Virus record (IMG/VR): IMGVR_UViG_3300034056_000018
Location: 1-37,691 of that record
Length of the DNA: 37,691 bases
Reading direction: 5' to 3' (one strand)
Source: a virus
Taxonomy: Duplodnaviria > Caudoviricetes
Below, in pieces: positions 1-23,868 of the stretch. The notes beneath the pieces are model-generated. The model was not told where the DNA came from, did no database searches, and saw only the letters and a list, made by a program, of their open reading frames with translations. Position numbers and translations under genes: made by a program. Each line of letters begins with the position of its first letter. The first letter of the stretch is position 1.

Positions 1-1
1 T

Positions 2-199
2 GATGAAGAAGTCCAATTTGGCAAGAAAGACGATATTTTAAATGAAACTGGAGAATATTATTCAGACGAAATATACAAGCAATGTTTCTACAATCAATGG
101 ATATATCGTGGCAAAGACTACACAATGATTATGGTAGATACTCATACTGATGGTAACAAATTCTTGGCGATATTTGATAATTCTAAAGAGATTAAGTAG
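2..199 (+). CDS. 5'-truncated hypothetical phage protein (first gene of left-end array)
   Basis: Open frame from the window edge (DEEVQFGKK...MVDTHTDGNKFLAIFDNSKEIK) ending TAG at 197-199; not in the ORF track. Confidence 0.7.
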   Translation, partial: DEEVQFGKKDDILNETGEYYSDEIYKQCFYNQWIYRGKDYTMIMVDTHTDGNKFLAIFDNSKEIK

Positions 200-223
200 C
201 TCGCAATTTGATTATAGGGCGAA
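200..223 (+). repeat. 24-bp cassette-boundary site A: CTCGCAAT TTGATTAT AGGGCGAA
   Basis: Starts at the first base after the stop codon and precedes the next RBS; matches eight other sites in the window. Confidence 0.7.
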
Positions 224-240
224 TTTAAAGGGAGGATATT

Positions 241-423
241 ATGACAACTACAGAATTAATAGAATTATTAAAAAGTATAGAGCGTGGTGCTAGTGGCAGA
301 AGCAGAGAGATTAGTTTTAAAGTAGGTAAAGAACATATTTTTGAGCCCGATATAACAATTAGTAGCACAGGTGATGGTATTGCAGGGGCGGAAGTATGCT
401 TAAAAATTATAAAGAAAGATTGA
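241..423 (+). CDS. hypothetical protein, 60 aa
   Basis: GGGAGG RBS just upstream; bounded by sites A and B. Confidence 0.75.
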   Translation: MTTTELIELLKSIERGASGRSREISFKVGKEHIFEPDITISSTGDGIAGAEVCLKIIKKD

Positions 424-447
424 TATATCATTCAAAGAAATGAGCAA
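424..447 (+). repeat. 24-bp cassette-boundary site B (degenerate): TATATCAT TCAAAGAA ATGAGCAA
   Basis: Starts at the first base after TGA; same 8-8-8 register but weaker arms. Confidence 0.45.
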
Positions 448-483
448 CCATTATTGATAAGATTCATTAAGGAGGAATAAATT

Positions 484-645
484 ATGATAGTAATAAAGTG
501 TCCACAAAGCGATTGTGAAAGCACTGATGTGGTGTTTCACGAACACGAAGTTGTTAACGATAACGGCGATATTTACTATTGCAGAAATTGCGGAAATTAC
601 TTTGATGAATTTGCAGCTATAGAAGAACAAATGGAAGGTGAATAA
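484..645 (+). CDS. small zinc-ribbon-like protein, 53 aa
   Basis: AAGGAGG RBS; MIVIKCPQSDCES...YYCRNCGNYF with two Cys pairs; below the ORF-track cutoff. Confidence 0.75.
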   Translation: MIVIKCPQSDCESTDVVFHEHEVVNDNGDIYYCRNCGNYFDEFAAIEEQMEGE

Positions 646-662
646 TTCAAGTATAGGACGTA
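639..662 (+). repeat. 24-bp cassette-boundary site C: TGAATAAT TCAAGTAT AGGACGTA
   Basis: Contains the stop codon; left arm identical to site G and right arm identical to site E. Confidence 0.7.
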
Positions 663-665
663 AAT

Positions 666-691
666 AAGACTAGAGTATTCTCTAGTCTTTT
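666..691. terminator. intrinsic terminator between convergent genes
   Basis: Perfect 10-bp stem AAGACTAGAG/CTCTAGTCTT with a TATT loop. Confidence 0.8.
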
Positions 692-1601
692 ATCTTTCCA
701 TTTCTCTATCTTTTAACTTCTCGAGTGGTATCTTACATACACCTCTATAAAGCTTATTTTCCTTCCTAAGTTCCTTTATCTCTTTAGATAACTCTAAAAC
801 TCTCTTATCGGCTTCTAGAGCTTTAGTTTTATAATTTTCGATGTCACGTTCATATACTTTCAAAGTGTTCTCTAAACCCTTTATACGGTGTTTTAGGAGT
901 ATATTGTTCTTGTGTAGTGTCTGAGCTGATTCTTGAGTTACTTCATTGTCTAGTAGTCCATAATACTTTTTAATATCAATGTGTTTTGCTCTACTCTTTT
1001 TTATTCCTCTTTTTAAGCTTGGAAATCTTTCAGTAATTGTTTTAGCGTAATCGTCCTGGAGCTCGCTTAGTTTTTGTTTGTTTCCAAAGAAGTGTCTGTT
1101 GCTTAGTAAGTGATAGCCACGTTCTAGCCACCTCTTCGGTGAAATAAAAGCATGAATGTGAGGGCTAGTCTCATCCAGGTGAAGAATTGCATATAAAACC
1201 ATATCTTTGAACTTGTCTACTAGCCACTTAACATTAGTGTATACCCAGGATAGAAATTCCTCTTTACTGATATTATCAAAATATTCTTTAGATGCAGTTA
1301 ATAACATTTCCCTTCCTAGCGTGTTATCAACTTTTATAAACTTACAATCTGATATATATTCCTGCACGTTTTTAACTAGGTTTACGTCGCCTATAAGACG
1401 ATAATTTTTGATAGAGGTATCAGCATTAGGTGTGTCGTTAAACCTCTCCACGTGGTTTATAAACATCTGTATTTCACCGTAGTTTTTGAAGGAACGTTGT
1501 ACTCGCATTATTGCATAATAGTTCCCTCTTTGGGGAAAACTAAGAGGTTGGGTGCTTTCAAGTTGGAAGGGGTTATAATCTTTGATGTACTTACTAAACA
1601 C
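690..1601 (-). CDS. mobV: MobV/Pre family relaxase (plasmid recombination enzyme)
   Basis: YAIMRVQ start motif, NHVER, TPNAD, EMLLTAS, HLDETSPHIH metal-binding motif, LQDDY, LKRG...AKH and coiled-coil C-terminus. Confidence 0.92.
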   Translation of the reverse strand: MFSKYIKDYNPFQLESTQPLSFPQRGNYYAIMRVQRSFKNYGEIQMFINHVERFNDTPNADTSIKNYRLIGDVNLVKNVQEYISDCKFIKVDNTLGREMLLTASKEYFDNISKEEFLSWVYTNVKWLVDKFKDMVLYAILHLDETSPHIHAFISPKRWLERGYHLLSNRHFFGNKQKLSELQDDYAKTITERFPSLKRGIKKSRAKHIDIKKYYGLLDNEVTQESAQTLHKNNILLKHRIKGLENTLKVYERDIENYKTKALEADKRVLELSKEIKELRKENKLYRGVCKIPLEKLKDREMER

Positions 1602-2002
1602 TACCGCTCAACTCCCTTATCTTGATACCTTTCTTTATACTTTTCCTTTATCTCGTGTTCCCTGGCGAAGTGCCAAACAACCTCAGCAGCAGCTTCTTCT
1701 TTTGTATTGCATTTTAGAAGTTTAACCATGTGCTTTTCTTGCTCGTAATTAAGATCAGTGTCTAGACCTCTGAATATTTCATTATTCTCCATAACCTTGT
1801 GCATGAAGTTATTCCTTGTTTGAAGTTCGTTAATCTTCTTTTGTTGTCCGCTTAATAACTGATTAAGTGCAGTAATAAGTTCTTTATTACTCATAGTTTC
1901 GATATCTTTTTCTATTAACCATTGATACTCGTTGAATTTATTTAATAGGTTTTTAATGTGTGCCTTTAAAAAGAAGTCCTCAATATTTTCTTTAAGATTC
2001 AA
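1601..2002 (-). CDS. hypothetical coiled-coil protein coupled to the relaxase
   Basis: Stop overlaps the relaxase start; TTG at 2002 follows a GGGGG RBS (the ORF track extends to 2041). Confidence 0.65.
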   Translation of the reverse strand: MNLKENIEDFFLKAHIKNLLNKFNEYQWLIEKDIETMSNKELITALNQLLSGQQKKINELQTRNNFMHKVMENNEIFRGLDTDLNYEQEKHMVKLLKCNTKEEAAAEVVWHFAREHEIKEKYKERYQDKGVER

Positions 2003-2170
2003 TTTAAAACCCCCTATTATTAATTCTATCTTCAATGTCACATAGCTTTTGTAACAGGATATCCATATCGGTTTTTTTAGGTTTTCTAGTTTTCCAAAGA
2101 CTTATAGAGCAACCTGTTAATATTACTGCGGTTATTTTAACAATGTGTTGAAGTATAAAAGCATGAACCA

Positions 2171-3505
2171 TTACAACCACTCCTTGTATTTAGGATTTGT
2201 TTTATAATAATTGGTATCGTCTAATATAGGTTGAAAATTATCACTCAATATTACACATTTACCCTTTGGTATTCTCCTTAACTCTCCTGGTGTGAATAAA
2301 GGTTTCTTAGTTCTAACCTTTGATTTCTCTTGTTGTATGGTTATTTCTTCATCGTCACAAAGTAAACTTAATAATTTTAAAGTTTCAGAATCACTTATTC
2401 CCGGAAGTACCACCTTAGTTTTTAGGTTATTCCAAATGGTTAAAGCGTTATCGTGTCCATACACTTGTTTTAGTTGGTTAAAATCTTGCAAGAATAACTC
2501 AAAGGATATGCCACGTTTAGCACAAGTACTGATAGTTACATTAAAACCTGTGATCTGTCCAAGATTTGCAAATTCATCGAGTTTAAACCATATATCTAAA
2601 CCTTTAGTATCTATAAGCCTATTAATAAGCTGATTATACATAGGTGCTATTAACGGTGCTAAATAATATCCCATGTGTTCCGGGTAGGTTACATATACTA
2701 TTGTTTCTACCTTCCTTAGCGTTTCAGCATTGAAAGAAGTGCTTTTAATAGCTAGGTTATCAAGAAACAATCCAAGCATAGCAACCATAGTTCCCTTGAT
2801 ACTACCTTGCATATTCTGAGCAGATGCACCGCTTAAATAAGCTCTGTAATACCTTTCAGCATTACCATTAAAATCACTCTCCATTTTTTCATCATCGGCA
2901 ATTATGAAATATTCAATTACATCACTTAAACTCATTCTCTTACCTTTGGCATAAAAGAGAAGTGCAGCTAGTAGATTAGTGGACATTTGCAACCACTCAG
3001 TACCACCTGACTTTTTACCTGTTGGAAGTTCTATTGCTAGACAACCATTGATTAAAAGGTTTTGTGCTAACTGCACTACTTCTCTATCTTCTTTACACTC
3101 ACTTAAAGGATTGTATTCAACTTCTCCTGGTTTCAACGGATTGTATACTAATACTTTTCTACCTATTGATTCTTGAAATTTAGCAGTTGCGTTATATATT
3201 TCAAGCGAAGGATCATATACAATAATTGAACCTCTGATATTATTTTGAAGTAAATTAGGTATTAGAATATTGGTGGTTTTTCCTGCTCTTGTAGGTGCGA
3301 AAACTCCTATATGAGCTTGGCTTGCATCTTTTGAAAGGATATGATTTTTCGATAACTGTATTCCGTCTTTACCGCTTGATAACTCAGTTCCTAATTCTCC
3401 CGTTGCTAGTTTAACTCTTTCCCTTCTTGCTAGTACCGCTATTACTGCAAGTAGTGATCCTAGTCCTATTTTTAGTGCTAATTGAATAAAAGTTAATATT
3501 TCCAT
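2171..3505 (-). CDS. virD4: VirD4/TraG-type type IV coupling protein
   Basis: N-terminal TM segment, Walker A APTRAGKT, SIIVYDP, YNPL, Walker B LDEFANLG, LQDFNQLKQVYG, KPLFTPGELRR. Confidence 0.92.
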   Translation of the reverse strand: MEILTFIQLALKIGLGSLLAVIAVLARRERVKLATGELGTELSSGKDGIQLSKNHILSKDASQAHIGVFAPTRAGKTTNILIPNLLQNNIRGSIIVYDPSLEIYNATAKFQESIGRKVLVYNPLKPGEVEYNPLSECKEDREVVQLAQNLLINGCLAIELPTGKKSGGTEWLQMSTNLLAALLFYAKGKRMSLSDVIEYFIIADDEKMESDFNGNAERYYRAYLSGASAQNMQGSIKGTMVAMLGLFLDNLAIKSTSFNAETLRKVETIVYVTYPEHMGYYLAPLIAPMYNQLINRLIDTKGLDIWFKLDEFANLGQITGFNVTISTCAKRGISFELFLQDFNQLKQVYGHDNALTIWNNLKTKVVLPGISDSETLKLLSLLCDDEEITIQQEKSKVRTKKPLFTPGELRRIPKGKCVILSDNFQPILDDTNYYKTNPKYKEWL

Positions 3506-3561
3506 GATTACCCCCGTATATTTTTATTAATGTTGATAATAATATTAGTGAGGTGATTATT

Positions 3562-3636
3562 ATGCTAGTGTTAGAGATTATAGCTTGGGGTGCATCAATT
3601 ATATCTTTTGCAAGTGCGTTGAAGGATTTATTATAG
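3562..3636 (+). CDS. 24-aa hydrophobic peptide MLVLEIIAWGASIISFASALKDLL
   Basis: Strong GAGGTGA RBS; fills the virD4-parR gap on the opposite strand. Confidence 0.55.
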   Translation: MLVLEIIAWGASIISFASALKDLL

Positions 3637-3642
3637 GGGGAA

Positions 3643-3876
3643 CTATTCCCCCATGAACCTTTTTAATTCATCTATATCTAGTTCGTCAAATTCCTTAGGT
3701 TCTTCCACGACTTTTACATATTCTTTAATAAGTCTTTTAATAGTATCCTCTAAGGATTCCTTTTTCATATCTTCTCTAATTAACTCTTTCACGAAAGTAG
3801 AAAAGGGTTTATTCTGCGTTATAAAGTGTTCTATTAGTTTCTTATCCTTCTTACCGAAATTAACGGACTTACGCAT
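3643..3876 (-). CDS. ParR-like ribbon-helix-helix adaptor
   Basis: MRKSVNF...LIEHF...FSTFVKELIREDM RHH pattern, acidic tail, downstream of ParM. Confidence 0.7.
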   Translation of the reverse strand: MRKSVNFGKKDKKLIEHFITQNKPFSTFVKELIREDMKKESLEDTIKRLIKEYVKVVEEPKEFDELDIDELKRFMGE

Positions 3877-3891
3877 TCCATAACACCCTCC

Positions 3892-4311
3892 TTAACCTTG
3901 ATTATCGGTGCAGTAATCAACATGAAACGTGTTAAAATAAGGACAATATTTACCGTTAATTGTTTTTAGTTTTTCAAAGTCTATATTATTTGAATCCTTA
4001 AAAACTTTATCCAACTCCTGTGTTAATAGTGCATCTCGAATAACCTTTGAGTTTTCCTTAGTTATTTCAATCATTAAAGAATTGCAATATCCTGGTGTGT
4101 TTGTGCTATCTGCGGTTATCCATATACCTGGGGTTTTAGTATACTTTTTATAATATTTATTAACGTAGGAATCAAAAGCTTTTAGCATTGATTCTTTGTT
4201 GTCTGTAGTTCCTTCTTTTAAAATATTATCTCGTATTCTTTGAGTTATTATGTCTTTTGCAAGGCTTATACCTAATGCTACCGTCGCAATACCACAAGTT
4301 AAAATAATCAT
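3892..4311 (-). CDS. hypothetical protein with N-terminal hydrophobic segment
   Basis: GGGAGG RBS; lies between parM and parR. Confidence 0.7.
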   Translation of the reverse strand: MIILTCGIATVALGISLAKDIITQRIRDNILKEGTTDNKESMLKAFDSYVNKYYKKYTKTPGIWITADSTNTPGYCNSLMIEITKENSKVIRDALLTQELDKVFKDSNNIDFEKLKTINGKYCPYFNTFHVDYCTDNQG

Positions 4312-4328
4312 TATATTACTACCTCCCT

Positions 4329-5216
4329 TTAACTATTCCATAACATTTCGCCAACTGTTTCATTAGTGATGCTATTAGCAAACTGTGCATCTTCTACTAG
4401 GCTTATATTAGGGTATTCAGATTTAAAGTAATTTATAAGAGGTGCTGCACCCCCGCCAATTAATTCAATCTTACAGAGGTCATAATTAAAAGATTGATTA
4501 ACCTTGCTACATATCTTTGTTACGTGATCGGCTATTATAAATCTAGTAAAACTCATATCTCTAATTTCTTGCCTTATCTCATATTCATCTTTACCTATGA
4601 TATGCTCAATATCCTCACTACTCAACTTGCTTCTGTATTTAGCGTTTATAGCCTTTTTAAGCTCGTCATAAAGGGGTAGCATGCCAAGTGGTTCACTAGA
4701 ATGTTTAATAAGTTGTAGACCGTTAAATTCACTTATATCAGTAGTTCCTCCACCTATATCTATTAATAAGGTTCTTTGGCTTTTATATTTCTTAGGGTTA
4801 CTAAATACTATACTGTTTTCGCAAAATACCTCAGCATGTTTTATTCTTATGGTTCGTCTAACTCCATCAATATATATTTCTTGCATGCCCATGTTCGACA
4901 ACTTCTCTTTAAGTTCTTTTTTTAAGCTACTTTCGTATAAGTCCGGGGGTAGGCTTAGCACTACATTTTCCTCTATTACTTCATCATTGTTACTTTTAGC
5001 AATAGCAGTTAATAAGCATATATCGTACATATCGGAATAGATTCTATTAACTCCTATTACTGGTGTTCCTATCCCTACTGTGTACGGTTCATTTTTATAG
5101 ATTACCTTTATATCGTTGGTATTCATATCCTTGTGTCCTTTGCTTATGCGACTTGCAAACTTAATCATTCTGCTTGTTTTGGTTATCTCATTACCCAAGT
5201 CAATTCCTAAAGACAT
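4329..5216 (-). CDS. parM: ParM/StbA family actin-like partitioning ATPase
   Basis: Actin-fold motifs LGIDLGN, LIDIGGGTTD and LIGGGA. Confidence 0.9.
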   Translation of the reverse strand: MSLGIDLGNEITKTSRMIKFASRISKGHKDMNTNDIKVIYKNEPYTVGIGTPVIGVNRIYSDMYDICLLTAIAKSNNDEVIEENVVLSLPPDLYESSLKKELKEKLSNMGMQEIYIDGVRRTIRIKHAEVFCENSIVFSNPKKYKSQRTLLIDIGGGTTDISEFNGLQLIKHSSEPLGMLPLYDELKKAINAKYRSKLSSEDIEHIIGKDEYEIRQEIRDMSFTRFIIADHVTKICSKVNQSFNYDLCKIELIGGGAAPLINYFKSEYPNISLVEDAQFANSITNETVGEMLWNS

Positions 5217-5255
5217 TTAATATACCTCCTACTTTGTATGATTAACTCCTACTAT

Positions 5256-5333
5256 TATTTTATGTAGGTTAATACAAATAGTGCAAAAAGTATGATATTT
5301 TTGGTACTAAAATAAAACTATCGGCATATAGTA
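5256..5333. promoter_or_regulatory. back-to-back sigmaK/sigmaE-like promoter candidates
   Basis: Minus: GCAC-N16-CATAAAATA toward parM. Plus: AC-N17-CATATAGTA toward the 5368 ORF. Confidence 0.35.
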
Positions 5334-5367
5334 TTAATATAGAGAATGAAAAAGGGGAATAGTAAAC

Positions 5368-5589
5368 ATGTTAAAAATGAAGTCTTATCCATTTACTAGA
5401 GAAGGTTTTGAGGAAATGACCGCTAAGAAACCAATAATAACTAAGAAGAATTTAGTATTAGGAGTAACTGCAATAGCTTATATCTCTATAATTGCATTAC
5501 AAGCCAGTACAGGCACGATTGCTAGTATGGGTTCAGTAGAGGATAGCTTAATAAAAGCATTCTTTACAAAGCCACCAGTAGGACTATAG
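5368..5589 (+). CDS. hypothetical single-pass membrane protein
   Basis: AAGGGG RBS; hydrophobic stretch LVLGVTAIAYISIIAL. Confidence 0.7.
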   Translation: MLKMKSYPFTREGFEEMTAKKPIITKKNLVLGVTAIAYISIIALQASTGTIASMGSVEDSLIKAFFTKPPVGL

Positions 5590-5601
5590 GAGGTATGGAG
5601 T

Positions 5602-5799
5602 ATGTATAAATATTTTGCAGTATTCAAAAGTGGTAGATTATCAGAATATCAACTAGGGAATGACTTTCCGCATTACGAGTTTTTCGCACCAGGTGACGAA
5701 GATGCAAGAGATTGGGCGGAAGATTGGATAGAAGAATATAACGAAGATCACAAGACTAATTTTAGATTGTATATGATATATCCTTTAGGAGGTGCTTAG
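5602..5799 (+). CDS. hypothetical acidic protein
   Basis: AGGAGG RBS; follows the previous gene in an apparent operon. Confidence 0.7.
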   Translation: MYKYFAVFKSGRLSEYQLGNDFPHYEFFAPGDEDARDWAEDWIEEYNEDHKTNFRLYMIYPLGGA

Positions 5800-5800
5800 A

Positions 5801-6121
5801 GTGAAAAAAGAAATAATAGATTTAGCAAAACAGTATTCTACAGATATGAACGGAAAGACAATATTGAATTGTAATTTTACATGTGGTGATATGGCTTTAA
5901 GGATTGATAATATTAATGAAAAGGACGTTTATGTGTGTGCTAGAATTGACGGTACAGAGTGGAAATTTGATTTCTTTAGGCAGGCTTGTGTATTTCACTT
6001 CATAACCACTCAAGTAGGTTCACAAGAGGACGAAACGTTAAACGAATATTACGAAACAATAAAATATACGGTTGGTTCTAAATCGAAACAAGAAATTCAA
6101 TTACAACAAAAATTGTTATAA
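5801..6121 (+). CDS. hypothetical protein
   Basis: AGGAGGT RBS fits a GTG at 5801 (the ORF track starts at 5792). Confidence 0.65.
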   Translation: MKKEIIDLAKQYSTDMNGKTILNCNFTCGDMALRIDNINEKDVYVCARIDGTEWKFDFFRQACVFHFITTQVGSQEDETLNEYYETIKYTVGSKSKQEIQLQQKLL

Positions 6122-6123
6122 CA

Positions 6124-6150
6124 AAAGGGGTGGAGTTAACCGCCCCTTTC
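6124..6150. terminator. bidirectional terminator between the plasmid block and the lysis cassette
   Basis: AAAAGGGGTGG...CCGCCCCTTT stem between convergent genes. Confidence 0.7.
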
Positions 6151-6175
6151 CTCATGTCGTGATTTCCGACATTAG

Positions 6176-6379
6176 CTATTTATCATCACCAAAACCACTA
6201 TTTTCTGTGGTAGGATCATTTAAAATTCCCGCACCCACCAATATTGATAAACCTGTATTAACCAAAATGTCAATGTCCTCAGGCAACTGATAATTGGTGA
6301 ATGTCTTTATTAATAACATAACAAAGCCTATCACGCTAAATATAAAGGCTTTATTGCGTAGTCTACTTTTTAAGTCCAT
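6176..6379 (-). CDS. phage holin (phi LC3-like)
   Basis: MDLKSRLRNKAF start, two TM segments, GILNDPTT motif. Confidence 0.85.
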   Translation of the reverse strand: MDLKSRLRNKAFIFSVIGFVMLLIKTFTNYQLPEDIDILVNTGLSILVGAGILNDPTTENSGFGDDK

Positions 6380-7245
6380 TAGGAAACCACCTCCAACATT
6401 TTACTAAAGGTTTTAGGACCTACAATTCCATCCGCAACTAAACCATGTTTAGACTGAAAAGATTTAACTGCCGCTAGTGTTTTAGAACCAAATATACTAT
6501 CTATGTTAACTCCAACAACTAACTGAATAACTCTTACTGCTCTATCGTTGTTTGATCCTAATTTTATAATAGGTAGTTTTGATACTGCCGACCTAGTTAA
6601 AGGACCTACAATTCCATCAACAACTAAATTAGCAACTCTTAATACATTGCATAACTCTTGAAACTCTTTAACTCTAACATTTCCCAGTGACTTTGGTGCT
6701 TGTTTTACCTCTACTGGTTTAACTTCTATTGGTGTAACTCCATAAGATTTAACCTCGTTCATAAAAGTATCCTTATCAATAGAAGTACCTGGACATGTCT
6801 TTGGTGAATTCTCTCTATGGAATCTTATATATCTTCCTTTGTCATTAAAGTACTTAGCAAGCTTTAACATAGAATCCTTTTGAGTTCCACCGAATACGTC
6901 ATTACCTAGTTCGTTAGGTTGTCCAGTACCAGGAGTATCAAAGTTGCCTAATATCTCACAAGCAAATGCACCTGTGTTATATCCGCTAATAGATGCAGGC
7001 TTTACTCCAAAATCTCTACCAGTTACAAATAAACCGTTAGGAAGCAAAGTAACATGTTGCCCTATATCCGTCCAACCATTTGTATTTATATGAGTTCTTC
7101 TCATACTTGCTTGTAATTCTAGTCCATTGTTACCGTTAAAGCTAGAATGTGCGGGTTTCCATGTGTGGTGTGTATGTAACTCTTTATAGTCATACTTTTC
7201 TAATTCTGAAATTAATTGTTCTACGGTTAAAATTCTATCTGACAT
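6379..7245 (-). CDS. endolysin: N-acetylmuramoyl-L-alanine amidase with C-terminal peptidoglycan-binding repeats
   Basis: HTHHT, NGWTDIGQH, HRE..KTCPG catalytic motifs; VDGIVGPLT, IDSIFGSKT, FQSKHGLVADGIVGPKT repeats. Start 7245 or 7254. Confidence 0.9.
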   Translation of the reverse strand: MSDRILTVEQLISELEKYDYKELHTHHTWKPAHSSFNGNNGLELQASMRRTHINTNGWTDIGQHVTLLPNGLFVTGRDFGVKPASISGYNTGAFACEILGNFDTPGTGQPNELGNDVFGGTQKDSMLKLAKYFNDKGRYIRFHRENSPKTCPGTSIDKDTFMNEVKSYGVTPIEVKPVEVKQAPKSLGNVRVKEFQELCNVLRVANLVVDGIVGPLTRSAVSKLPIIKLGSNNDRAVRVIQLVVGVNIDSIFGSKTLAAVKSFQSKHGLVADGIVGPKTFSKMLEVVS

Positions 7246-7246
7246 A

Positions 7247-7474
7247 TTATTCACTCCTTTTGTTAATAACCTTGTTTTCTATTAGGTTAAGTCGCATGTC
7301 CATTTTATCAATAGTACTTGATATTTTTTCAAGACTTTCATTAGACTTTTCTAAATGCGTCATAAGTCTTTTTTCTCTTTCCCTGCTATCGTGTAATATG
7401 TACACTATCAATACAACTGCAAGTAACGCCCACAGTCCTTGATTGGCAGCAGCTTTTATTAGAACTTCTTCCAT
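7247..7474 (-). CDS. BhlA/UviB family holin-like peptide
   Basis: QGLWALLAVVLIVYIL..SREREKRL followed by a coiled coil. Confidence 0.85.
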   Translation of the reverse strand: MEEVLIKAAANQGLWALLAVVLIVYILHDSREREKRLMTHLEKSNESLEKISSTIDKMDMRLNLIENKVINKRSE

Positions 7475-7776
7475 TAGTTTACCTCCGTATATTTCTTTAG
7501 AGATTCTATGGTTTTAAATCCAACCCCCTTTACATTGTCTAATTCATCAAAGGATTTGATTATACCTTTAGATTTACGGTATTCTATTATATTTTTAGAC
7601 TTGACCTTACCAACTAAAGGTATAACTTCTAATTCCTCTGTTGTTGCTAGGTTGATATTTATCTTTTGTTCTTCAAACCTTATATCGCTTATCGGGGTGC
7701 GGAAATTATATACTATAACGAATATGCTAAATATTAGAAATATGATAAGCAGGAATTTAAGAAGTTTGTGTTGCAT
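7474..7776 (-). CDS. membrane-anchored ComEA-like helix-hairpin-helix DNA-binding protein
   Basis: N-terminal TM, then KININLATTEEL..IPLVG...IIEYR...FDELDNVKGVG double HhH. Confidence 0.88.
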   Translation of the reverse strand: MQHKLLKFLLIIFLIFSIFVIVYNFRTPISDIRFEEQKININLATTEELEVIPLVGKVKSKNIIEYRKSKGIIKSFDELDNVKGVGFKTIESLKKYTEVN

Positions 7777-7842
7777 ATACTTCCCCCAAACTAAAAGGAA
7801 ATATGTCCTTTTATATTCTTAGTAAGATGTTGATATACTAGG

Positions 7843-7872
7843 AAAAAGAGATAGGTTTTATTTCCTATCTCT
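7843..7872 (-). terminator. intrinsic terminator at the end of the structural operon
   Basis: AGAGATAGG/CCTATCTCT stem followed by a T run on the minus strand. Confidence 0.75.
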
Positions 7873-7965
7873 AAATATAACTGCGGATATTAAACAGAAT
7901 ACAAATATTAAACCAAAACCCCAACCCATTAAGTCGTAAATGAACTCAATTATCTTACCACCCAC
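7858..7965 (-). CDS. 35-aa membrane peptide MGGKIIEFIYDLMGWGFGLIFVFCLISAVIFRDRK
   Basis: GTG start after a GGGGTGG RBS; one TM and a charged C-terminus. Confidence 0.55.
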   Translation of the reverse strand: MGGKIIEFIYDLMGWGFGLIFVFCLISAVIFRDRK

Positions 7966-7975
7966 AAAACCACCC

Positions 7976-10900
7976 CTATTTTACATTATATTTTGCGTTT
8001 GCTTCTTTAGATAATTGTAACATTTTTAACCTTAATTTGGTAACTAAATTTTTATCTCCTTTTGCTTCTGCTTCTTTTATTTGTTTGTTAAGTGCTGACA
8101 TTTCAGTAGATACTTTATTAAGTGCATTTCTAGTCTGTTCCTGAGTAGTAACAGTTTTAGAATCCACCTTTTCAATTATGTTTCTATCAGCAGCTAACTG
8201 TTTGGATTTATCAAGCATATCATAGAAATCTGTTACACCTTGATTACTATAAGCAGGATCAGCAATAAACTGTGTTGTAAGAGGTTTAAAAGCCTTTTCA
8301 GTAGTGTTGCCTCCTTGCATAGTGTTTTTGGTTGTTAGAGGTAAACCAAGTTGAGCTATAACTCCTAGATAACTTCTAATTAAGTAGTCCATTTGCTTAG
8401 GTGATAAGTCTATTCCTTGCTTGCTTGCTAGTTCTGCTATCTTCTTTGTTATCTCACTTGTCTTTTCGTCATACTGTAGATACTTAGATCGTCCGTCCTC
8501 TGTCATCGCACGTGGCACAATATCACGTCCTGCGAAATCTTTATTACCACCTACCGCAATATTGATTGCAGGGCCAAAGAGATTACTCTCAAGAGGGTTT
8601 GCAGGGCCTATATTATTTCTGAGTGTTGTGCCAAAGTCTTTAAATGCGTTCTGCTCTCCATCTTGTTGTCTTAGATACCTTTCAGCAAGTGAACCGAATA
8701 GAACACCGTATTCCCTAGACTTAGGTATTTTGATAAAGGTTTTAGCGTTGCCCTTCTCATCTTTCTCACCAAATACATTAGGGATAAGAATATTGTTATC
8801 CTTGGTCCTATTATCTAAATCCTTAAAATTCGGATTGTCCTTGTTATAGTAGTTCATAGCAAGTACTGGAAGTGTAACAACTGTAGCACCTTTTAAGGCG
8901 GTTTGAACTGGACTTTTAATAACTTGTCTGCCTAGTTTGTCTAAACCTTGAACCGATGCGTTTAAATAAGGTGTGAATACATCAAAGAACTTGGTTAAAT
9001 CTCCACCCCTTGAGAAGTTAGTTGTTACCTCGGCAGCATCATACATAGCCTTATCTAAGTTTTCGCCACGTCCCAAACTATTCTTAAACTCTGCAAGTCT
9101 TGGAGCTGATTCAGTAACACTATTTAACTTTTCTATTCCTCCACCTATAGCGTTTAATATCTTCTTGCCTGTGCTTATATTTCTATATCCAGTAACTTTT
9201 CCTTCTGCATCAAGTATAGGAACTCTACCTGTTAATTCTGTTGCTGATTTAGTTGCATCTGATTTAAGGAAATTAGAACCTCCACCCCCTAAAGCTTTAT
9301 ACTGTTGATAGGTTGGTGAATTAGTTGCAATATCCTTAACCGCACCACCTAAGTTCCCAACAAGTTTAAAAGGGTTATTTTCTTTACTGTTAATTAAGTA
9401 AGTCGGAATATCTCTCATTACGTTTCGAATAGCAAACACTGGATTTTTAGTAGTTATTAAAGCTTTAAAAGCGGTGTTTATTGCCTTAATAGCTTTTGCA
9501 CCGTCGTGTAAATCTAATTTGTTTATAGAGGTTAACGCACCTAATAAGTTCTTATCATTGATTTGTAAGTATACAGGTTTGCCACCATCAAGAACAGTTA
9601 CAACATTATCTCTAGTTGCATAAGGATTGTGCTCAAAAGGTTTTGGAGGTGGTAATATCTCAGCGAGTTTACTCATAGCAGGGTTTTCTTTTACTGCCTT
9701 AACCACGTCTTGACCTACTTCATTATATTTAGCAGTCCTTATGGTTCTATTAACTAGATTCATTATGCTTTCAGTAGGGTCTACTATATCCCTTTGTGAA
9801 CCTGTGGCACTATTAATTGGAGTTGATTGATCCACGAAACTTTTACTATTGCCACTACCACCTGGGAGAAAATCTTCTAAGTCATTAAATCCCCTATTAG
9901 AAGGGATATAATTAGGGTATAACTCACGCATTTCATTGTATGCTTTCTCGTCAATAGTTCCCGCCTTAACTCCCCATTCTTTCATAAAGCTATCAAGCCA
10001 ACCAGAAATATTATCTGCTTTTTCTTTCCACTCTGGATGAAGCTTTTCTAAGTATTCTGCTCTTGCTTGTGATTCAGCAGGAGAATAAGCGACATCTTTA
10101 TCTTTGTAGTATATAGGCTTTTCTTGTCCTGCCCTTGCTACGTTATGACGTTGTAAAGCATACTCCCAAAAATCCACTTCCTCACCCTTTGGAATGTTAT
10201 CTTCAAGAGTTTTCTGCAAGGAATCACCTATCTTATTTCCCTTAGCATCTGATAAATGATTTTTAAGTACACTTTCAACAACACTTCCACTGTTAGCACT
10301 ATTAGTTGCCTTTACAAAAGCTTCGTTGCTAACTTTATCTATAGGCTTTTTAACATCAACTATTCTACTATAAGCAGTTTCCCATTTATCCTTAATACTA
10401 GTTTTACCTTTATTAGTTCCTGTTACTATACTTTGTTTAGGCTTAGCAGTAACGTCAAAATCTTCTGCAATAGTGTTGTTAGGTTCTTTGATGTTGATTT
10501 CCGCACTATCTACCTTGTCTATATTAGGCTCATCCATCTTAGAGTAATTAACCTTAAATGCTTCTTTCTTTGGTACATTACCCACGCTTATTCCCTCGAT
10601 AACGCTTAGAGGGTCTTTAAGCCCATCTATTTTAGTATTATTAACTACAGGGTTTATTTTAGTTTCTACGGTAGGTTTAACTGCAGGTAGGGTATTTGTA
10701 TTAACTTCTACTTTTGGAGCTTCTACAGGCTTGTTAACAGGTGTATTTTCAACTTTAGGAAGTTCAGTCTTTTTCCACTTAGGAAGTAAATCACCTGCAC
10801 CTTTTAAAATAGTTCCTACTCCTGCACCACCTATAAAGTTAGTACCCGCATTCTTGAGCATATCTTCTTTAGATTCTTTGTTAAATGTATCAGCAGCTAC

Positions 10901-11539
10901 ACCATAGGCAGTATTTTCAATACCTTCTTTAGCTGCATTCCCTGCATATTGTCCTAGTTTACCACCTAATTTATTAGCAATAGCACTTTCAGCAAGTTTA
11001 CCAACCTTAACCGCCCCCGATGCTTTACCGATGATATTAGCGGGAAGTAAATCAACTGCACTTCTAGCCAACATATAGGCAGCTTTTTCGGGTAGACTAG
11101 CATTAGTTTCATCAACTTTATTAGGTTCTACCATTACTCTGTCGTTATCTTCTCGTCTTTTCTGTAACCATTCTTGTTGACTTGAAGTGTTTATTCCTGG
11201 TATATGATTAACTGCTTTAAAATAATCGTCAGCAACATTTATAATTGCTTTATTGAAATTACCCACACCGCTATTAAGTGATTTGCCTATATTGGGAAGG
11301 AAGTTGCTCTTTTTAGGAGCAACCTCTTGTGTTGTTTCTTCTTCCTCAGGTGTGTAAGTTGTTATTGCAGGTCCTTTTATAGGGTTGGTTCTTACCTTAT
11401 CCATACCCGACATAAATTTATTGGAGGTGTTTTTAGGAGTTGTTGTATTGCTAGGTGCTATATTTTTTCCTTTTGCTTTATTCATTTTTTCCAAATAAGG
11501 GTTGTTACTCAAAATATCACTCTCCCTAATGTCTTGCAC
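7976..11539 (-). CDS. large internal virion/DNA ejection protein with LPD38-like C-terminal region
   Basis: 1187 aa; NPVFAIRN..RD, PRLAEF, TTNFSRGG, PYLNASVQG, FIKIPKS..YGVLF, NKDFAGRDIVP, LSPKQMDYLIRSYLG; last large gene of the structural module. Confidence 0.75.
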   Translation of the reverse strand: MQDIRESDILSNNPYLEKMNKAKGKNIAPSNTTTPKNTSNKFMSGMDKVRTNPIKGPAITTYTPEEEETTQEVAPKKSNFLPNIGKSLNSGVGNFNKAIINVADDYFKAVNHIPGINTSSQQEWLQKRREDNDRVMVEPNKVDETNASLPEKAAYMLARSAVDLLPANIIGKASGAVKVGKLAESAIANKLGGKLGQYAGNAAKEGIENTAYGVAADTFNKESKEDMLKNAGTNFIGGAGVGTILKGAGDLLPKWKKTELPKVENTPVNKPVEAPKVEVNTNTLPAVKPTVETKINPVVNNTKIDGLKDPLSVIEGISVGNVPKKEAFKVNYSKMDEPNIDKVDSAEINIKEPNNTIAEDFDVTAKPKQSIVTGTNKGKTSIKDKWETAYSRIVDVKKPIDKVSNEAFVKATNSANSGSVVESVLKNHLSDAKGNKIGDSLQKTLEDNIPKGEEVDFWEYALQRHNVARAGQEKPIYYKDKDVAYSPAESQARAEYLEKLHPEWKEKADNISGWLDSFMKEWGVKAGTIDEKAYNEMRELYPNYIPSNRGFNDLEDFLPGGSGNSKSFVDQSTPINSATGSQRDIVDPTESIMNLVNRTIRTAKYNEVGQDVVKAVKENPAMSKLAEILPPPKPFEHNPYATRDNVVTVLDGGKPVYLQINDKNLLGALTSINKLDLHDGAKAIKAINTAFKALITTKNPVFAIRNVMRDIPTYLINSKENNPFKLVGNLGGAVKDIATNSPTYQQYKALGGGGSNFLKSDATKSATELTGRVPILDAEGKVTGYRNISTGKKILNAIGGGIEKLNSVTESAPRLAEFKNSLGRGENLDKAMYDAAEVTTNFSRGGDLTKFFDVFTPYLNASVQGLDKLGRQVIKSPVQTALKGATVVTLPVLAMNYYNKDNPNFKDLDNRTKDNNILIPNVFGEKDEKGNAKTFIKIPKSREYGVLFGSLAERYLRQQDGEQNAFKDFGTTLRNNIGPANPLESNLFGPAINIAVGGNKDFAGRDIVPRAMTEDGRSKYLQYDEKTSEITKKIAELASKQGIDLSPKQMDYLIRSYLGVIAQLGLPLTTKNTMQGGNTTEKAFKPLTTQFIADPAYSNQGVTDFYDMLDKSKQLAADRNIIEKVDSKTVTTQEQTRNALNKVSTEMSALNKQIKEAEAKGDKNLVTKLRLKMLQLSKEANAKYNVK

Positions 11540-12317
11540 TTCCTACAACCGTTACACCGCTAAATGGTGAAGTTCTATAGGTCATTGTGTAATTATCTAC
11601 CCACTTCTTATATAACTTGTCATAGGTTGCTTGACCCGCTTGCTTTATTATTTCTTCACCGTTTTGATCTAAAAAGTTTTTCATATCTGATACAGTTTCA
11701 GCAGTATTAAAAGCTTCTTCAACTTGTTTCTGTACCGCTACTTTATCAGTTTTAGCTACACCACTTGAACTTCTCGAACTAGATCCACCACTTGAACGTC
11801 TAGCACTTGCAGCAGCTTGAGCAGCTTGTAACCTTTGATACTCCACTTCACTTCTTAATGCTTGCTCGTCACCTGTTGCACCTTCCTCGGTTAACCTTCT
11901 TCGATTATATATATCCGCTATCTTCTGTGCCTGTTCCCTCTGTGCGGTGGAATTTTGATTCATTATATCTCTATTGAAAGTATCTTCATTAGTTTTTATC
12001 CTTCCTAAGTTATTACTAAAATCAGTATTCGCCCTCATGTAAGCATCGGCACTTTCGCCACTTTGAAGTAAATTTTTACTAGCCATCCAGTCACGCATTT
12101 GTTGTACATTCTGTGCGTTACCTACTGCTGCTTCATTACGTTGATTGTAGTAACCTGTCTTAGCATCTTCTTGCTTAGTCTTTAACTGATTATAGAGGTC
12201 AGTATATTGGTTGTTTGTCGCTTGTTCTTCACTTGCTAGTCCTGCTAAACTCTGGTCTTTTTTCTTTTTAATATCATTTAGTTTAGCTTGATATAATTGC
12301 TCATACATATCTGCCAC
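11526..12317 (-). CDS. putative internal virion/ejection protein
   Basis: Gln/Ala-rich helical protein with a Ser/Gly linker, upstream of the large ejection gene. Confidence 0.55.
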   Translation of the reverse strand: MADMYEQLYQAKLNDIKKKKDQSLAGLASEEQATNNQYTDLYNQLKTKQEDAKTGYYNQRNEAAVGNAQNVQQMRDWMASKNLLQSGESADAYMRANTDFSNNLGRIKTNEDTFNRDIMNQNSTAQREQAQKIADIYNRRRLTEEGATGDEQALRSEVEYQRLQAAQAAASARRSSGGSSSRSSSGVAKTDKVAVQKQVEEAFNTAETVSDMKNFLDQNGEEIIKQAGQATYDKLYKKWVDNYTMTYRTSPFSGVTVVGSARH

Positions 12318-12329
12318 TATAACACCTCC

Positions 12330-12782
12330 TTAATATCCTATTGCTATCCAGTTAACAGGTAGAGACCCGCCCGGGTAATCTTGTTTTAAGATTACACTTG
12401 TTGCACCCTTACTAACAATACCCGCATAATGAGGGTTAACATCTATAACTGTAGGGAATACACCAACGCAGTTATTAGGGAATGCAGTTGAGAAAGTTAT
12501 TGTTGTACCTCCATTAGATACGTTAGTTTCTCCCCATTTAACAATAAACTTAGAACTACCCACAGGAATATCAACACTCCCCTGTGCTGCTAGAGTACCA
12601 CTAACCGCTAAACTTGCGTGTGTATGGTCTGTTTTTGAATAATCGTCATTGTCATTGAGATAGTCTTTTAATTGATTAAATAGTGTCATGAATTGTTGTC
12701 TTGCTACCGTTTCACTTGCGGGATCACTAGGAAATGTATTTATATCTAAAAGGCCCGTTGTTGGATCGTATGTAAAACTCAT
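12330..12782 (-). CDS. short tail-fibre-like protein (gp53-like C-terminal domain)
   Basis: IVKWG...TITFSTAFPNNC...VNWIAIGY C-terminal pattern typical of tail fibre tips. Confidence 0.65.
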   Translation of the reverse strand: MSFTYDPTTGLLDINTFPSDPASETVARQQFMTLFNQLKDYLNDNDDYSKTDHTHASLAVSGTLAAQGSVDIPVGSSKFIVKWGETNVSNGGTTITFSTAFPNNCVGVFPTVIDVNPHYAGIVSKGATSVILKQDYPGGSLPVNWIAIGY

Positions 12783-12793
12783 TGTATACCCCC

Positions 12794-14629
12794 TTATTTA
12801 ACTTGCTTTCCAATTGTATATTTTAAAACTAAAGCTATTATTGAAAGGTTTTTATTATATTCGTTATTAGAAATCTCGAACTGAAAATAGATTACCCTCT
12901 TGGAATTACGTATTTTCTCTTTAACCACAGGGTCAAACTTTAATACTTTCCATGAGAAGTTATTCCATGAGAAATTACCCCATGAAAAACTCTTAGTATC
13001 CGCTGAACTTATAGGAATACTCTCAGTTTCGTGTTTGTCGTTGTAGATATTAACAGAGATTGAACTTGAACTATTAGCTCTGGTAGTCAACCAAAAAGCA
13101 TTTATAGTTTTTTCATAGTCCGTATAACCGAAATCCATTATCTTTGACTTCCATATAGCGTTTATAGGCTGCCCAAAGTCATTAGAAGCTGCTATAAACT
13201 TAACTAAGTGCCCTAGTTCTCTGTGACCGTAACAGAGTTCGTTATCACGACTAAAGAAGCAATTAGCCTTTATATTATCGTAATAGAACCATGTCAATGT
13301 CTTAGGCTTTTTAACATCAAAAGAAATCTTGTAATCCCATATATAACAATGATCGTCAACACATATATAATACTTGTTACCTAAATCAAAACTAGAAGCA
13401 CTCTTTAGCATTGTAACATCTTCTTGAAGTAATCCGGGACGTTGAAGATTACCATTGATATTGTCACTCACAGGAGTTATATTCTTTTCTCCTGGTATTA
13501 AGGTACTTAGAATTATATGAACCCCTCCATAAGTGTTACAAAATACAACATTATTGTTAACTAATTGTACTGTATCCGGCATGTCACAACCTATTTCCGT
13601 ATTCAAGTATGATATAGGGAATGAAGCGGTATTGTCTAGTCCTAGTGCAGCCTCCACAGTTGCGGTTAAATCCTCTTTAAATACTATTAACTTCCCATAA
13701 TGCACCGCAAAAGCAGTAACTTTCTTATCAGCACCCCTTACCCCGTACCGATATTTCTCAGGGAAATAAGAAGCATCTAGGGAATCAGTAACACCACTAG
13801 CAAAATAGAAGTTAGGTATATCGTCATTCCCTGTAAAGAACATTCTATTACTAAATTCTATTGCCCTCTTACATTTGAGTATAGAATCAACCTTTCCGCT
13901 AAAGGTTTTATATGCAGTAATCTGCACATTATTTAAGCCACTTGCAGGAGCAGCACTAAAATTAACATATCCTGTGGTACGATTAACGGTAAATCCACTA
14001 CCCTCTGTAAGTCCTGCTAAATTAACTGTTACTGTAGTATTTTCTAAACTATCAAAGCTTAATTTATAAGCAGTTGAAGTTCCGTCACCGTTGAACTGGT
14101 CCGTAAATCCTGTACCTATCATGTTCCAACTTTCATTAACTGTACTTTCAGAACCATCCGGCTTACGGTTAATACTAACCTTAGGTATATAAGGGGTAAC
14201 TGTACTTACCGTTGTACCATCGTATTTTATGTAGTTAGTTCCGTTAATCATATACAGAGTACCATTATAGACAAAGAAAAAAGCCTTACTATTAGCAAGA
14301 CCGCTATATACTTCCACAGGTTGATTACTTCCAACCTGTGTATATAGTTTTGTTCCATGTGCTATTATGGTTTTATCTTTATAGTTACTGTAAACACCAT
14401 TTATAGCCCCTGAGCCGAGGGAAGTTTCATAGACATAGGCTTGCCCATACCTTTTGATTAACATGCCCCCATCGTCGCAATTAAGGTTTACCATGTAAGG
14501 ACTTTGGGTAAGGTTAATGTCTGATTCTTGGTCTAGACACAAGCCACCATTTAGAGGTATTTTACCGTTGGCCCCTAACCTTAATTCGTATTCCTTCTTT
14601 TTACTTGTAGGGTAATTCAAATTTACCAC
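12794..14629 (-). CDS. tail nozzle / DNA stabilisation protein (P22 gp10 / T7 gp12-like)
   Basis: 611-aa beta-rich protein, NGGL...SP.MVN start, EIGC motif; follows the adaptor. Confidence 0.65.
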   Translation of the reverse strand: MVNLNYPTSKKKEYELRLGANGKIPLNGGLCLDQESDINLTQSPYMVNLNCDDGGMLIKRYGQAYVYETSLGSGAINGVYSNYKDKTIIAHGTKLYTQVGSNQPVEVYSGLANSKAFFFVYNGTLYMINGTNYIKYDGTTVSTVTPYIPKVSINRKPDGSESTVNESWNMIGTGFTDQFNGDGTSTAYKLSFDSLENTTVTVNLAGLTEGSGFTVNRTTGYVNFSAAPASGLNNVQITAYKTFSGKVDSILKCKRAIEFSNRMFFTGNDDIPNFYFASGVTDSLDASYFPEKYRYGVRGADKKVTAFAVHYGKLIVFKEDLTATVEAALGLDNTASFPISYLNTEIGCDMPDTVQLVNNNVVFCNTYGGVHIILSTLIPGEKNITPVSDNINGNLQRPGLLQEDVTMLKSASSFDLGNKYYICVDDHCYIWDYKISFDVKKPKTLTWFYYDNIKANCFFSRDNELCYGHRELGHLVKFIAASNDFGQPINAIWKSKIMDFGYTDYEKTINAFWLTTRANSSSSISVNIYNDKHETESIPISSADTKSFSWGNFSWNNFSWKVLKFDPVVKEKIRNSKRVIYFQFEISNNEYNKNLSIIALVLKYTIGKQVK

Positions 14630-15162
14630 CCACCATCGTATATTCTTTTTACAACTGTTTGTCTTACCTTATCAGCTCTTATAGAACTAAACCCATCTTC
14701 CCACATATTAAGCCACTTAACTGCACGATCATCATCTTCTATATTGAAATATTGAAAGGCTGCATAGTAACATAATAACCTGTGGTCCACCGCTTCGTCA
14801 GGAAGTTCAGGAACGTCTGTAAGACTTGATAATTCATTGGGTATATAATTATAAAGCACATCTACAGGACCATCATAATCAAATTCTATTGCGTTATTCT
14901 CTATAGTGAAATCTATAGGAAGATTATCAACACTTACCTTTTTAAGTTTATAGAATTTCTTAGTAAGAGGGTCACCGCTTGATACGGTGTCCTCATATTC
15001 TAAAGGATATTTCTCTCTTACTATCTTCTTATAAGCGAAGTTAATCGCAGATTTAAATATATTGGTTAAAGTTATGCTCTCACCTATATATTCGTTATCC
15101 TGCTTTTGAAGTACCTCGCCTATATACATAGCGGTTTCGTTGTACATTTCATCTAAAGTCAC
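14623..15162 (-). CDS. head-tail adaptor protein
   Basis: 179 aa; MTLDEM start, YNYIP..L...DVPELP...HRLLCYYAA pattern; position before the nozzle. Confidence 0.65.
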   Translation of the reverse strand: MTLDEMYNETAMYIGEVLQKQDNEYIGESITLTNIFKSAINFAYKKIVREKYPLEYEDTVSSGDPLTKKFYKLKKVSVDNLPIDFTIENNAIEFDYDGPVDVLYNYIPNELSSLTDVPELPDEAVDHRLLCYYAAFQYFNIEDDDRAVKWLNMWEDGFSSIRADKVRQTVVKRIYDGGW

Positions 15163-15166
15163 TTTA

Positions 15167-16591: not shown

Positions 16592-16604
16592 TCAATCACC
16601 CCTT

Positions 16605-16883: not shown

Positions 16884-16895
16884 AGTTAATACCTC

Positions 16896-18602: not shown

Positions 18603-18606
18603 TTAA

Positions 18607-18849: not shown

Positions 18850-18860
18850 GTTATTACCTC

Positions 18861-19175: not shown

Positions 19176-19191
19176 AAATCCTCCACATAGT

Positions 19192-19226
19192 AAAAAAAGG
19201 GGAAATCAATTAAGACTTCCCCTTTT
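19192..19226 (-). terminator. terminator after the major capsid gene
   Basis: AAAAGGGGAA/TTCCCCTTTT stem with a T7 tail on the minus strand. Confidence 0.75.
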
Positions 19227-19235
19227 AGTTTATTA

Positions 19236-20411: not shown

Positions 20412-20426
20412 TTATAACATCTCCCT

Positions 20427-23858: not shown

Positions 23859-23868
23859 TATTACACCT

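Follow-up and report, generated by a model that had tools for sequence, protein, structure and literature searches.

The window analysed here, a whole contig of 37,691 bases and the linear virus record IMGVR_UViG_3300034056_000018, likely comes from a tailed, temperate phage with a clostridial host. Beside its lysis genes lies a block (positions 666-6148) that encodes a MOB_V relaxase (MobV), a VirD4-type coupling protein (T4CP) and the partition proteins ParM and ParR. We favour, as fairly probable, the view that the window is a phage-plasmid that can also be mobilised through foreign conjugation pores. The relaxase and coupling protein genes have intact motifs, lie inside the phage genome, are under purifying selection and recur in unrelated clostridial phages. 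A first-pass annotation of this DNA had proposed a mobilisable phage-plasmid: the genes, their place inside the phage and the circular relatives support that proposal, while conjugative transfer is what we infer from them.

A relaxase, a coupling protein and partition genes in a phage genome

The 303-amino-acid (aa) relaxase gene (690-1601, minus strand) matched Pfam Mob_Pre (E = 1.9e-28; 100.1 bits, cut-off 25.5), NCBIfam MobV (102.3 bits, cut-off 100) and the structure of MobM (PDB 4lvi; E = 5e-12). Its N-terminal H-x-x-R and H-x-D-E-x-x-P-H-x-H motifs are intact, and the catalytic N-terminal histidine and the metal-binding histidines are present; the corresponding MobM residues are H22, H126 and H133 (PMC13436267). 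The equivalent of H22 was placed by motif because the pairwise alignment to 4lvi begins after it. All 33 aligned relaxases of the family have the N-terminal histidine, and in 6 of the 33 the last metal-binding histidine is replaced. These six (L003-L005, L106, L113 and L081) carry serine or asparagine instead; the ratio of nonsynonymous to synonymous substitution rates (dN/dS) is still low in the L003-L106 pair.

The 444-aa T4CP (2171-3505, minus strand) matched T4SS-DNA_transf (E = 1.1e-51), and the profile of its family matched Cag5 and TrwB. Walker A and B motifs are intact, and a hydropathy scan revealed one N-terminal hydrophobic segment, read as a single helix. On the strength of the Walker motifs and the similarity to TrwB and Cag5, the protein is assigned to the VirD4/TraG superfamily and predicted to work like a T4CP. 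Among GenBank phages, neither T4CP nor MobV had a close relative (24-30% identity only).

The ParM/Alp actin-like partition ATPase (4329-5216, minus strand; 295 aa), recognised by Pfam and PHROG, matched ALP_N (E = 9e-14), PHROG 691 partition protein (E = 3e-47) and clostridial ParM structures. The ParR-like adaptor (3643-3876, minus strand; 77 aa) had a single clear homologue, located directly behind the closest ParM relative (L139; E = 8e-10). These matches, with the homologue of the ParR-like gene, bear out the earlier placement of MobV, VirD4 and ParM/ParR genes.

The block lies inside the phage

Contigs of sequencing run X1 bridge both borders of the block, one spanning 1-895 and another running from 5807 to beyond 12000. 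Depth in this run was flat across the stretch (~7-11), as an even-coverage check on the block had called for; X1 may be the source run of the window and is therefore not independent. In run X2, from a second study and containing a 0.12 share only, exact-match pieces fell in the left flank, parM, the small open reading frames (ORFs) and the virion module at a depth of 2-3.6; among the pieces listed, none fell in T4CP or mobV, and cover this sparse does not speak for absence. The block has no flanking att-like repeat (repeats of 8-10 nucleotides (nt), within the null), and its GC content is 0.333 versus 0.326 for the early region. Together with an identical gene order in the closed relative described below, the bridged borders, missing att-like repeat and matching GC content uphold the placement of the block within the phage genome. 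An integrative and mobilisable element (IME) inserted in the phage was also considered and rejected: its own integrase and flanking att repeats were looked for in the contig, and neither was found. Over window 1029-1600, run X1 also contains variants of mobV at 90-95% identity, from which we conclude that related elements co-occur in that sample.

Two copies of a 24-bp phage intergenic motif lie in the left flank (201-224 and 640-663, both plus strand, the second at the same position in the closest relative, G001). Early-region copies occur at 30170, 30357, 36148 and 36393 (minus strand), and G001 has copies at 10073, 10643, 2462, 2709 and 22020. With a matrix built from the four early-region copies, the left-flank copies at 201 and 640 rank next in the window (23.6 and 19.8; next best 14.0), with scores reached by 0 of 1000 shuffles; the training copies were chosen by a pattern written after the left-flank copies had been seen. 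A generic repeat finder did not show these sites, and pattern and matrix were required. By the matrix ranking and the shuffles, the left flank and the early region do share the same sites, as had been noted at first pass. In both the window and G001 the motif sits between the stop codons and ribosome-binding sites of small early-type genes. Possible roles are those of a regulator site, a leader element or a site of recombination through which small genes are shuffled.

The closest relative (locus L001, genome G001) is a complete, closed circular record of 40.1 kb. Its lysis genes are followed by three ORFs, parM/R, T4CP (75%), small ORFs, mobV (55%), a terminator and further small ORFs; beyond these, at the place where the window ends, come a second initiator-like gene and repressors. 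No integrase and no VirB4 were found in G001. Judged by the spacing in G001, the window would be short of ~4 kb; the CheckV estimate of 52% completeness disagrees. ParM of the window (4329-5216) and of L001 (8612-9550) occupy the same position and belong to unrelated clades, which marks a swap of the partition module. Because the ParM clade of G001 differs and its head genes are little alike, the Par, Mob and virion modules are taken to be exchanged separately. A protein with multiple helix-turn-helix (HTH) motifs is 96% identical between the window (32274-33044) and G001 (39132-39893) against 30-90% for other genes, which suggests recent exchange.

The T4CP-MobV pair recurs in clostridial phages

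A protein search yielded 26 T4CPs at 34-100% identity out of 34 matches, and their alignment was used to fetch loci from viral, genome and metagenome collections (for metagenomes, among the matches listed); 40 loci at ≥32% identity were kept and 75 distant ones dropped. Plasmid records and a sample of Clostridiales genomes were added. The kit was present in 10 of 381 sampled Clostridiales genomes, the centre genome included, with 20 not scored. Clustering at 90% identity gave at least 35 T4CP clusters besides the window, whose contexts were tallied by hand.

MobV lies behind T4CP in 25 of 35 clusters among the matches listed; it is absent in 4, and in 6 the contig ends too soon. The four clusters without MobV comprise two with two-helix T4CPs in non-phage DNA and two with a flank of only 0.7-1.5 kb. 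Virion, lysis or phage replication genes flank 19 of the 25 MobV clusters (two of them on a single lysis-type domain), five are too short, and one (L138) has no phage genes in 14 kb. Phage context is therefore seen in 19 of 20 evaluable clusters, or 13 of 14 when the 6 clusters first found in IMG/VR are left out. The contexts are podophage-like (L001, L009, L100), siphophage (L003-5, L082, L084, L105, L142) and myophage (L008, L081, L085), and some loci of the family carry ParM or ParA. The neighbouring ORFs that were scanned (≥100 aa, for the most part cluster representatives; E = 1e-5) included no VirB4 family.

Both plasmid-type and integrated forms occur. G001 and G002 are complete and circular and have no tyrosine or serine integrase. 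Chromosomal genes adjoin L002, L082, L085, L113 and L142, and provirus G005 combines the cassette with a serine integrase. NZ_CP022398.1 (whole record) and NZ_CP022402.1 (half covered) are circular Clostridium botulinum myophage-plasmids with the order endolysin-T4CP-MobV-ParM; both carry tyrosine recombinases, and both are typed as non-mobilizable by MOB-suite, which is why current counts miss such replicons. In each, a nick-like palindrome lies between the T4CP and MobV genes. The pair is also found on pGA0702E1CS, a plasmid typed as conjugative by MOB-suite and described as non-neurotoxigenic (PMC4824171). The T4CP-MobV pair is thus a recurrent module of clostridial phages, plasmid-type and integrated. 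It is not specific to phage-plasmids, being found in integrated prophages too, and the Par module is exchanged independently of it.

Several relatives fall outside this pattern. Two-helix T4CPs without MobV occur in non-phage DNA (L087, L096, L097, L110), with ParM upstream and a 7-repeat DUF4379 protein downstream in L096 and L097. In L098 a T4CP of the family lies near an archaeo-eukaryotic primase (AEP), a small terminase and a serine recombinase, a satellite-like setting in which the contig ends before any relaxase. Bacillus plasmids with a distant T4CP (~30%) were ruled out as the same module because their T4CP is paired with a MobA/MobL relaxase and the elements are not phages.

Selection and co-descent

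In 10 of 10 pairs compared, dN/dS was 0.07-0.19 for T4CP and 0.065-0.23 for MobV; both genes are under purifying selection. Between the window and G001 the ratios are 0.11 and 0.23, and synonymous divergence (dS), near saturation and hence rough, is 1.53 for T4CP, 1.82 for mobV, 1.51 for the endolysin and 1.41 for SSB. The dS values of the block are consistent with long residence beside the lysis genes.

FastTree trees were built for 23 chosen loci in which both genes are whole. Of the 13 strong splits of the T4CP tree, nine reappear in that of MobV, and in the reverse direction the figure is 7 of 11; the Mantel correlation between T4CP and MobV is 0.72, a value that none of 2000 permutations reached. 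This agreement is a sign of co-descent of T4CP and MobV, not of function.

A candidate origin of transfer

In 18 of 32 loci, near-copies among them, a nick-like motif, AAAACCGTAGT(A/G)AGT(T)ACG, occurs no more than 500 nt from the cassette; its form was read off the collected loci themselves. Elsewhere there are 8 matches in 405 kb, 4 of them ≤2 kb downstream of mobV. A matrix derived from the motif places its best site in G002 between T4CP and mobV, and in L081 19 nt are identical to the pMV158 nick region (as printed in PMC5863519).

In the window itself we can point to a weak candidate for the transfer origin (oriT), at 1589-1601 on the minus strand, with the core TAGTAAGT (1589-1596) and overlapping mobV codons 1-5. 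The window has four exact words of ≥11 nt in common with non-coding DNA of G001, and the candidate's 12-mer, intergenic in G001, belongs to them; two of the four, this 12-mer and the flank of a terminator, are at matching positions.

Upstream of T4CP, a pMV158-type nick pattern occurs in 8 of 34 loci versus 7 of 2082 tiles; the pattern was widened post hoc, four matches are near-copies, and the match in L010 lies inside the peptide coding sequence described below. The look-alike of this pattern upstream of the window T4CP was rejected as oriT because it is the ribosome-binding site of the peptide gene.

A divergent peptide gene with a forespore-type promoter motif

In 19 loci the strand opposite T4CP carries an ORF for a hydrophobic peptide of 24-35 aa, preceded by a strong ribosome-binding site and located 43-225 nt upstream of the T4CP start. 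In the window it encodes 24 aa (3562-3636, plus strand). A profile of the peptide matched only beside this T4CP family (154 loci). Beyond the three training copies, no other stand-alone match below E = 1e-3 was found in 386 genomes; two genome matches to the profile were rejected as cellulose-synthase-like helices, and the peptide had no meaningful Pfam match. A clade of long T4CPs lacks the peptide, yet has MobV and the nick motif.

A bipartite motif resembling promoters of the forespore factors sigmaF and sigmaG precedes the peptide gene in 15 of 18 non-redundant loci. Shuffled sequences gave a mean of 0.17 and a maximum of 2 in 2000, the opposite strand 0 of 18, and background DNA 32 of 718; patterns and spacers were tuned after these sequences had been seen. 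By eye, the peptide promoters resemble mapped C. difficile promoters of spoVT, spoIIR, spoIIQ and sspA (six rows of supplementary file 11, PMC7438776). The window's own promoter match (3516-3544, plus strand) is weaker and sigmaG-like. On their own strands, such promoters precede T4CP in 1 of 36 cases and mobV in 0 of 28. A close sigmaF/G-like match also lies antisense to the 5' end of mobV (1513-1542, plus strand), pointing across the oriT candidate; by eye it is not present in G001, so it may be due to chance.

A peptide gene with a forespore-type promoter beside T4CP is a new finding, previously unnoted. The promoter motif predicts that the membrane peptide is likely expressed in the forespore, and one might speculate that it gates the coupling protein during sporulation. 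The arrangement offers a small, testable link between the mobility of an element and sporulation.

A proposed transfer route and its alternatives

If the window is, as we favour, a mobilisable phage-plasmid, the genome in a lysogen would replicate in circular form with the help of a second initiator beyond the contig, where G001 has one, and ParM/ParR would segregate the circular prophage. MobV would nick oriT beside its own gene and bind the strand via its histidine. The phage's own T4CP would then dock the relaxase-strand complex on a foreign mating pore, so that no helper coupling protein need recognise it. The strand would recircularise in the recipient, bypassing limits of receptor and adsorption.

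Several results weigh against this view. The contig is incomplete (52% by CheckV), and G001 has the block, lysis and early genes in common with the window and little of the virion module. The T4CP, with 444 aa and one helix, falls outside the VirD4-type subfamily as defined in PMC7434980 (500-750 aa and at least two N-terminal helices) and, with a score of 165, stays below the cut-off of 250 set for the nearest NCBIfam equivalog. With the family matrix the oriT candidate is outside the top 8 in both the window and G001, and the G001 copy lacks the GT step. Two strong splits of the T4CP tree and one of the MobV tree are in conflict, the deeper placement of the window among them, and broken copies exist: MobV is split in L009 and L099, and L006 and L134 have a broken T4CP. 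None of 9 carrier genomes yielded an AAA_10-type VirB4, compared with 29 of 387 sampled Clostridiales, a difference that is not significant because ~0.7 would be expected, and P-loop_TraG above the cut-off was found in 0 of 6. This comparison of helpers has little power, and draft genomes lose plasmids; the lack of helper enrichment is in keeping with opportunistic hitch-hiking and would also allow a role that needs no pore.

One pore-independent role would be sporulation-linked DNA traffic, which we regard as unlikely. The relaxase and the single-helix T4CP would act inside the sporulating cell, moving a prophage strand into the forespore or being blocked there, with the forespore-made peptide as a partner or an 'already occupied' signal and conjugation as a secondary matter. 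The restriction of the peptide gene to the neighbourhood of this T4CP family, the promoter matches in 15 of 18 loci with their likeness to the mapped C. difficile promoters, and the missing VirB4 in 9 carrier genomes all speak for it. On the other hand, the promoter patterns were tuned after the sequences had been seen, T4CP and mobV have next to no such promoters on their own strands (1/36 and 0/28), the long-T4CP clade keeps MobV and the nick motif without the peptide, and the pair also resides on the conjugative plasmid pGA0702E1CS. We know of no pore-free transport by a T4CP, which counts further against this explanation. In its boldest form, to which we give a similarly small chance, all three tail types of clostridial temperate phages would share an undescribed module of MOB_V relaxase, single-helix coupling ATPase and forespore-expressed peptide that ties DNA export to sporulation. 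Either the prophage strand would be pumped into the developing spore without a mating pore, or the spore would switch conjugative export on or off. If true, such phages could be inherited in four ways: as virions, by plasmid partition, by conjugation and by loading into spores.

Somewhat less probable is a function in maintenance or interference without self-transfer, in which MobV would relax or resolve the plasmid prophage and T4CP would jam, or compete with, the pores of incoming conjugative elements. MobV alters copy number and plasmid-borne expression in one study (PMC13436267), either role would yield the observed purifying selection, and the window's oriT is weak; but the joint travel of relaxase, T4CP and nick motif, and the retention of both genes by integrated prophages, would be left unexplained, and the Walker motifs are intact.

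We consider it improbable that the window is an integrating prophage whose integrase lies beyond the contig, with ParM/ParR serving only after excision and the kit resembling the mobilisation module of an IME. The linear, 52%-complete contig would allow this, as would provirus G005 with its cassette and serine integrase and L142 with ParM and the cassette beside chromosomal genes, but closed G001 has repressor and initiator genes and no integrase in the corresponding stretch. Very improbable, and largely refuted already, is a block that rides along as a passenger, be it the remnant of a decayed plasmid, an element inserted separately or an assembly error: broken family copies in 4 loci, the 90-95% mobV variants in X1 and the listed X2 pieces, none of which covers T4CP or mobV, can be cited for it, but X1 contigs bridge both borders, no att-like repeat is present, dN/dS against G001 is 0.11 and 0.23, and dS is near the endolysin and SSB values.

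Layout of the block and the remaining phage genes

Behind the holin the order is hairpin, three small plus-strand ORFs, parM, a 139-aa ORF, parR-like gene, hairpin, T4CP, 58-aa and 146-aa ORFs, mobV and terminator. The first-pass annotation had described one block directly after the lysis cassette and bounded by terminators. Its genes do lie at that place, but three plus-strand ORFs (5368-6121; 73, 65 and 109 aa; 60-91% identity to G001) and the 139-aa ORF intervene, and the block consists of two separable modules, Par and Mob. Hairpins do bound the block: a scan found a hairpin terminator at 666-689, between phage plus-strand ORFs and mobV and conserved in G001, and hairpins at 6123-6148, between the plus-strand ORFs and the holin, and internally at 3636-3652, between the peptide gene and parR, were read by eye. 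The internal one is likely a bidirectional terminator. The genes that had been listed are present; the ORF at 2004-2180 (minus strand) and the peptide gene at 3562-3636 (plus strand) had been overlooked.

The three plus-strand ORFs are phage accessory genes, separate from the mobilisation genes. The ORF at 2004-2180 encodes 58 aa with a hydrophobic N-terminus and is conserved in G001 (48%). The 146-aa ORF (1601-2041, minus strand) belongs to no family and is 48% identical over 71 aa to a G001 protein; it is possibly a relaxosome accessory. The 139-aa ORF between parM and parR (3892-4311, minus strand) has an N-terminal hydrophobic helix and likewise no family. Atlas searches with the 146-aa and 139-aa ORFs gave sub-threshold leads only.

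Gene calls come from 60 ORFs scanned with Pfam and PHROG. Read leftwards along the minus strand, the window encodes ERF (cut by the contig end), a replisome organiser, DnaB, a methylase, SSB, a resolvase-type nuclease and TerS. Further along come TerL, a P22-like portal, major capsid, adaptor and tail proteins, an LPD38 protein and, last, the lysis proteins BhlA holin, endolysin and holin. Lytic replication and early genes, among them DnaB, replisome organiser and ERF, span 33198-37691, the virion module 7976-25899 and the lysis cassette 6176-7474, and the virion, packaging and lysis set (TerS, TerL, portal, capsid, adaptor, tail, holins, endolysin) is present as open frames. The presence of portal and adaptor without a tape measure suggests a podophage. 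Phages of Cellulosimicrobium, Microbacterium and Arthrobacter have capsids 28-35% identical to that of the window. The nearest named T4CP relative is that of Clostridium mobile MSJ-11 (49% identity), which points to a clostridial host. A search with the window capsid returned one close 9-kb contig and otherwise weak matches, and single-sequence searches of viral contigs with MobV and the endolysin returned no confirmed relative. Just upstream of the lysis cassette lies a ComEA-like helix-hairpin-helix protein with a hydrophobic N-terminus (7474-7776). An Rfam scan of window 1-8000 gave no match.

A circularity check went against a closed contig, which is linear and, when scanned, had no terminal repeat at its ends; the window's lack of an integrase therefore holds only for the sequenced part. 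When the contig was searched in six frames, no match to tyrosine integrase, resolvase, recombinase, AAA_10 or P-loop_TraG appeared. The reported lack of integrase and of VirB4 or other pore genes in the window is thus corroborated, and none were found in closed G001 and G002 either.

Comparison with known systems

Phage and conjugative transfer are usually viewed as alternative strategies, and relaxases on phage-plasmids have been read as fusion or decay. The mobilisation module described here is a real feature, stably built into intact-looking phages. A selected cassette in intact podo-, sipho- and myophages, both plasmid-type and integrated, would show stable dual mobility and would give prophages a way past receptor barriers among clostridia, some of which are species of medical and industrial importance. 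A literature search, made largely outside subscription journals, turned up no description of a MOB_V+VirD4 module in clostridial phages; the supplementary tables of phage-plasmid surveys may list such elements.

The pMV158 MobM/oriT system (MOB_V1; PDB 4lvi; PMC5863519) resembles the window in relaxase family and histidine motifs, and the window's relatives have a nick-like motif. Unlike pMV158, the window relaxase is carried by a complete-looking tailed phage with its own T4CP, has ~25 extra N-terminal residues and belongs to a family in which the position and strand of the nick motif vary. CloDF13 (MOB_C1) and streptococcal IMEs (PMC7434980, PMC5357655) likewise combine a relaxase and a T4CP without a mating pore, but none of them is a phage, and the window pairs MOB_V with a single-helix VirD4. 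Among the 144 IMEs surveyed in PMC5357655, streptococcal MobV elements have no coupling protein and VirD4 occurs only with MobC; MobV with VirD4 was not seen there.

Phage-plasmids such as P1, N15 and clostridial examples (PMC7969092, PMC10879196, PMC10123127, PMC10210947) share with the window virion and lysis genes, partition functions, no integrase found (for the window, within the linear contig) and circular relatives. Conjugation-related elements were reported in 6 of 222 E. coli phage-plasmids, which are oversized (PMC10123127), and P1-like elements gain relaxases while losing phage genes, a mark of decay (PMC10879196). Unlike these cases, the genomes of ~40-50 kb described here keep both phage and mobilisation sets under selection. 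Clostridial phage-plasmids as such are known and frequent (PMC7969092), with 46 phage-like contigs in C. perfringens (PMC10210947). Another comparison is with the streptococcal 'conjugative prophage' Phi1207.3, which is reported to move by a process fitting the operational definition of conjugation (PMC4260502). The main text of that paper names no relaxase and gives the mechanism as unknown, whereas the window encodes a MOB module.

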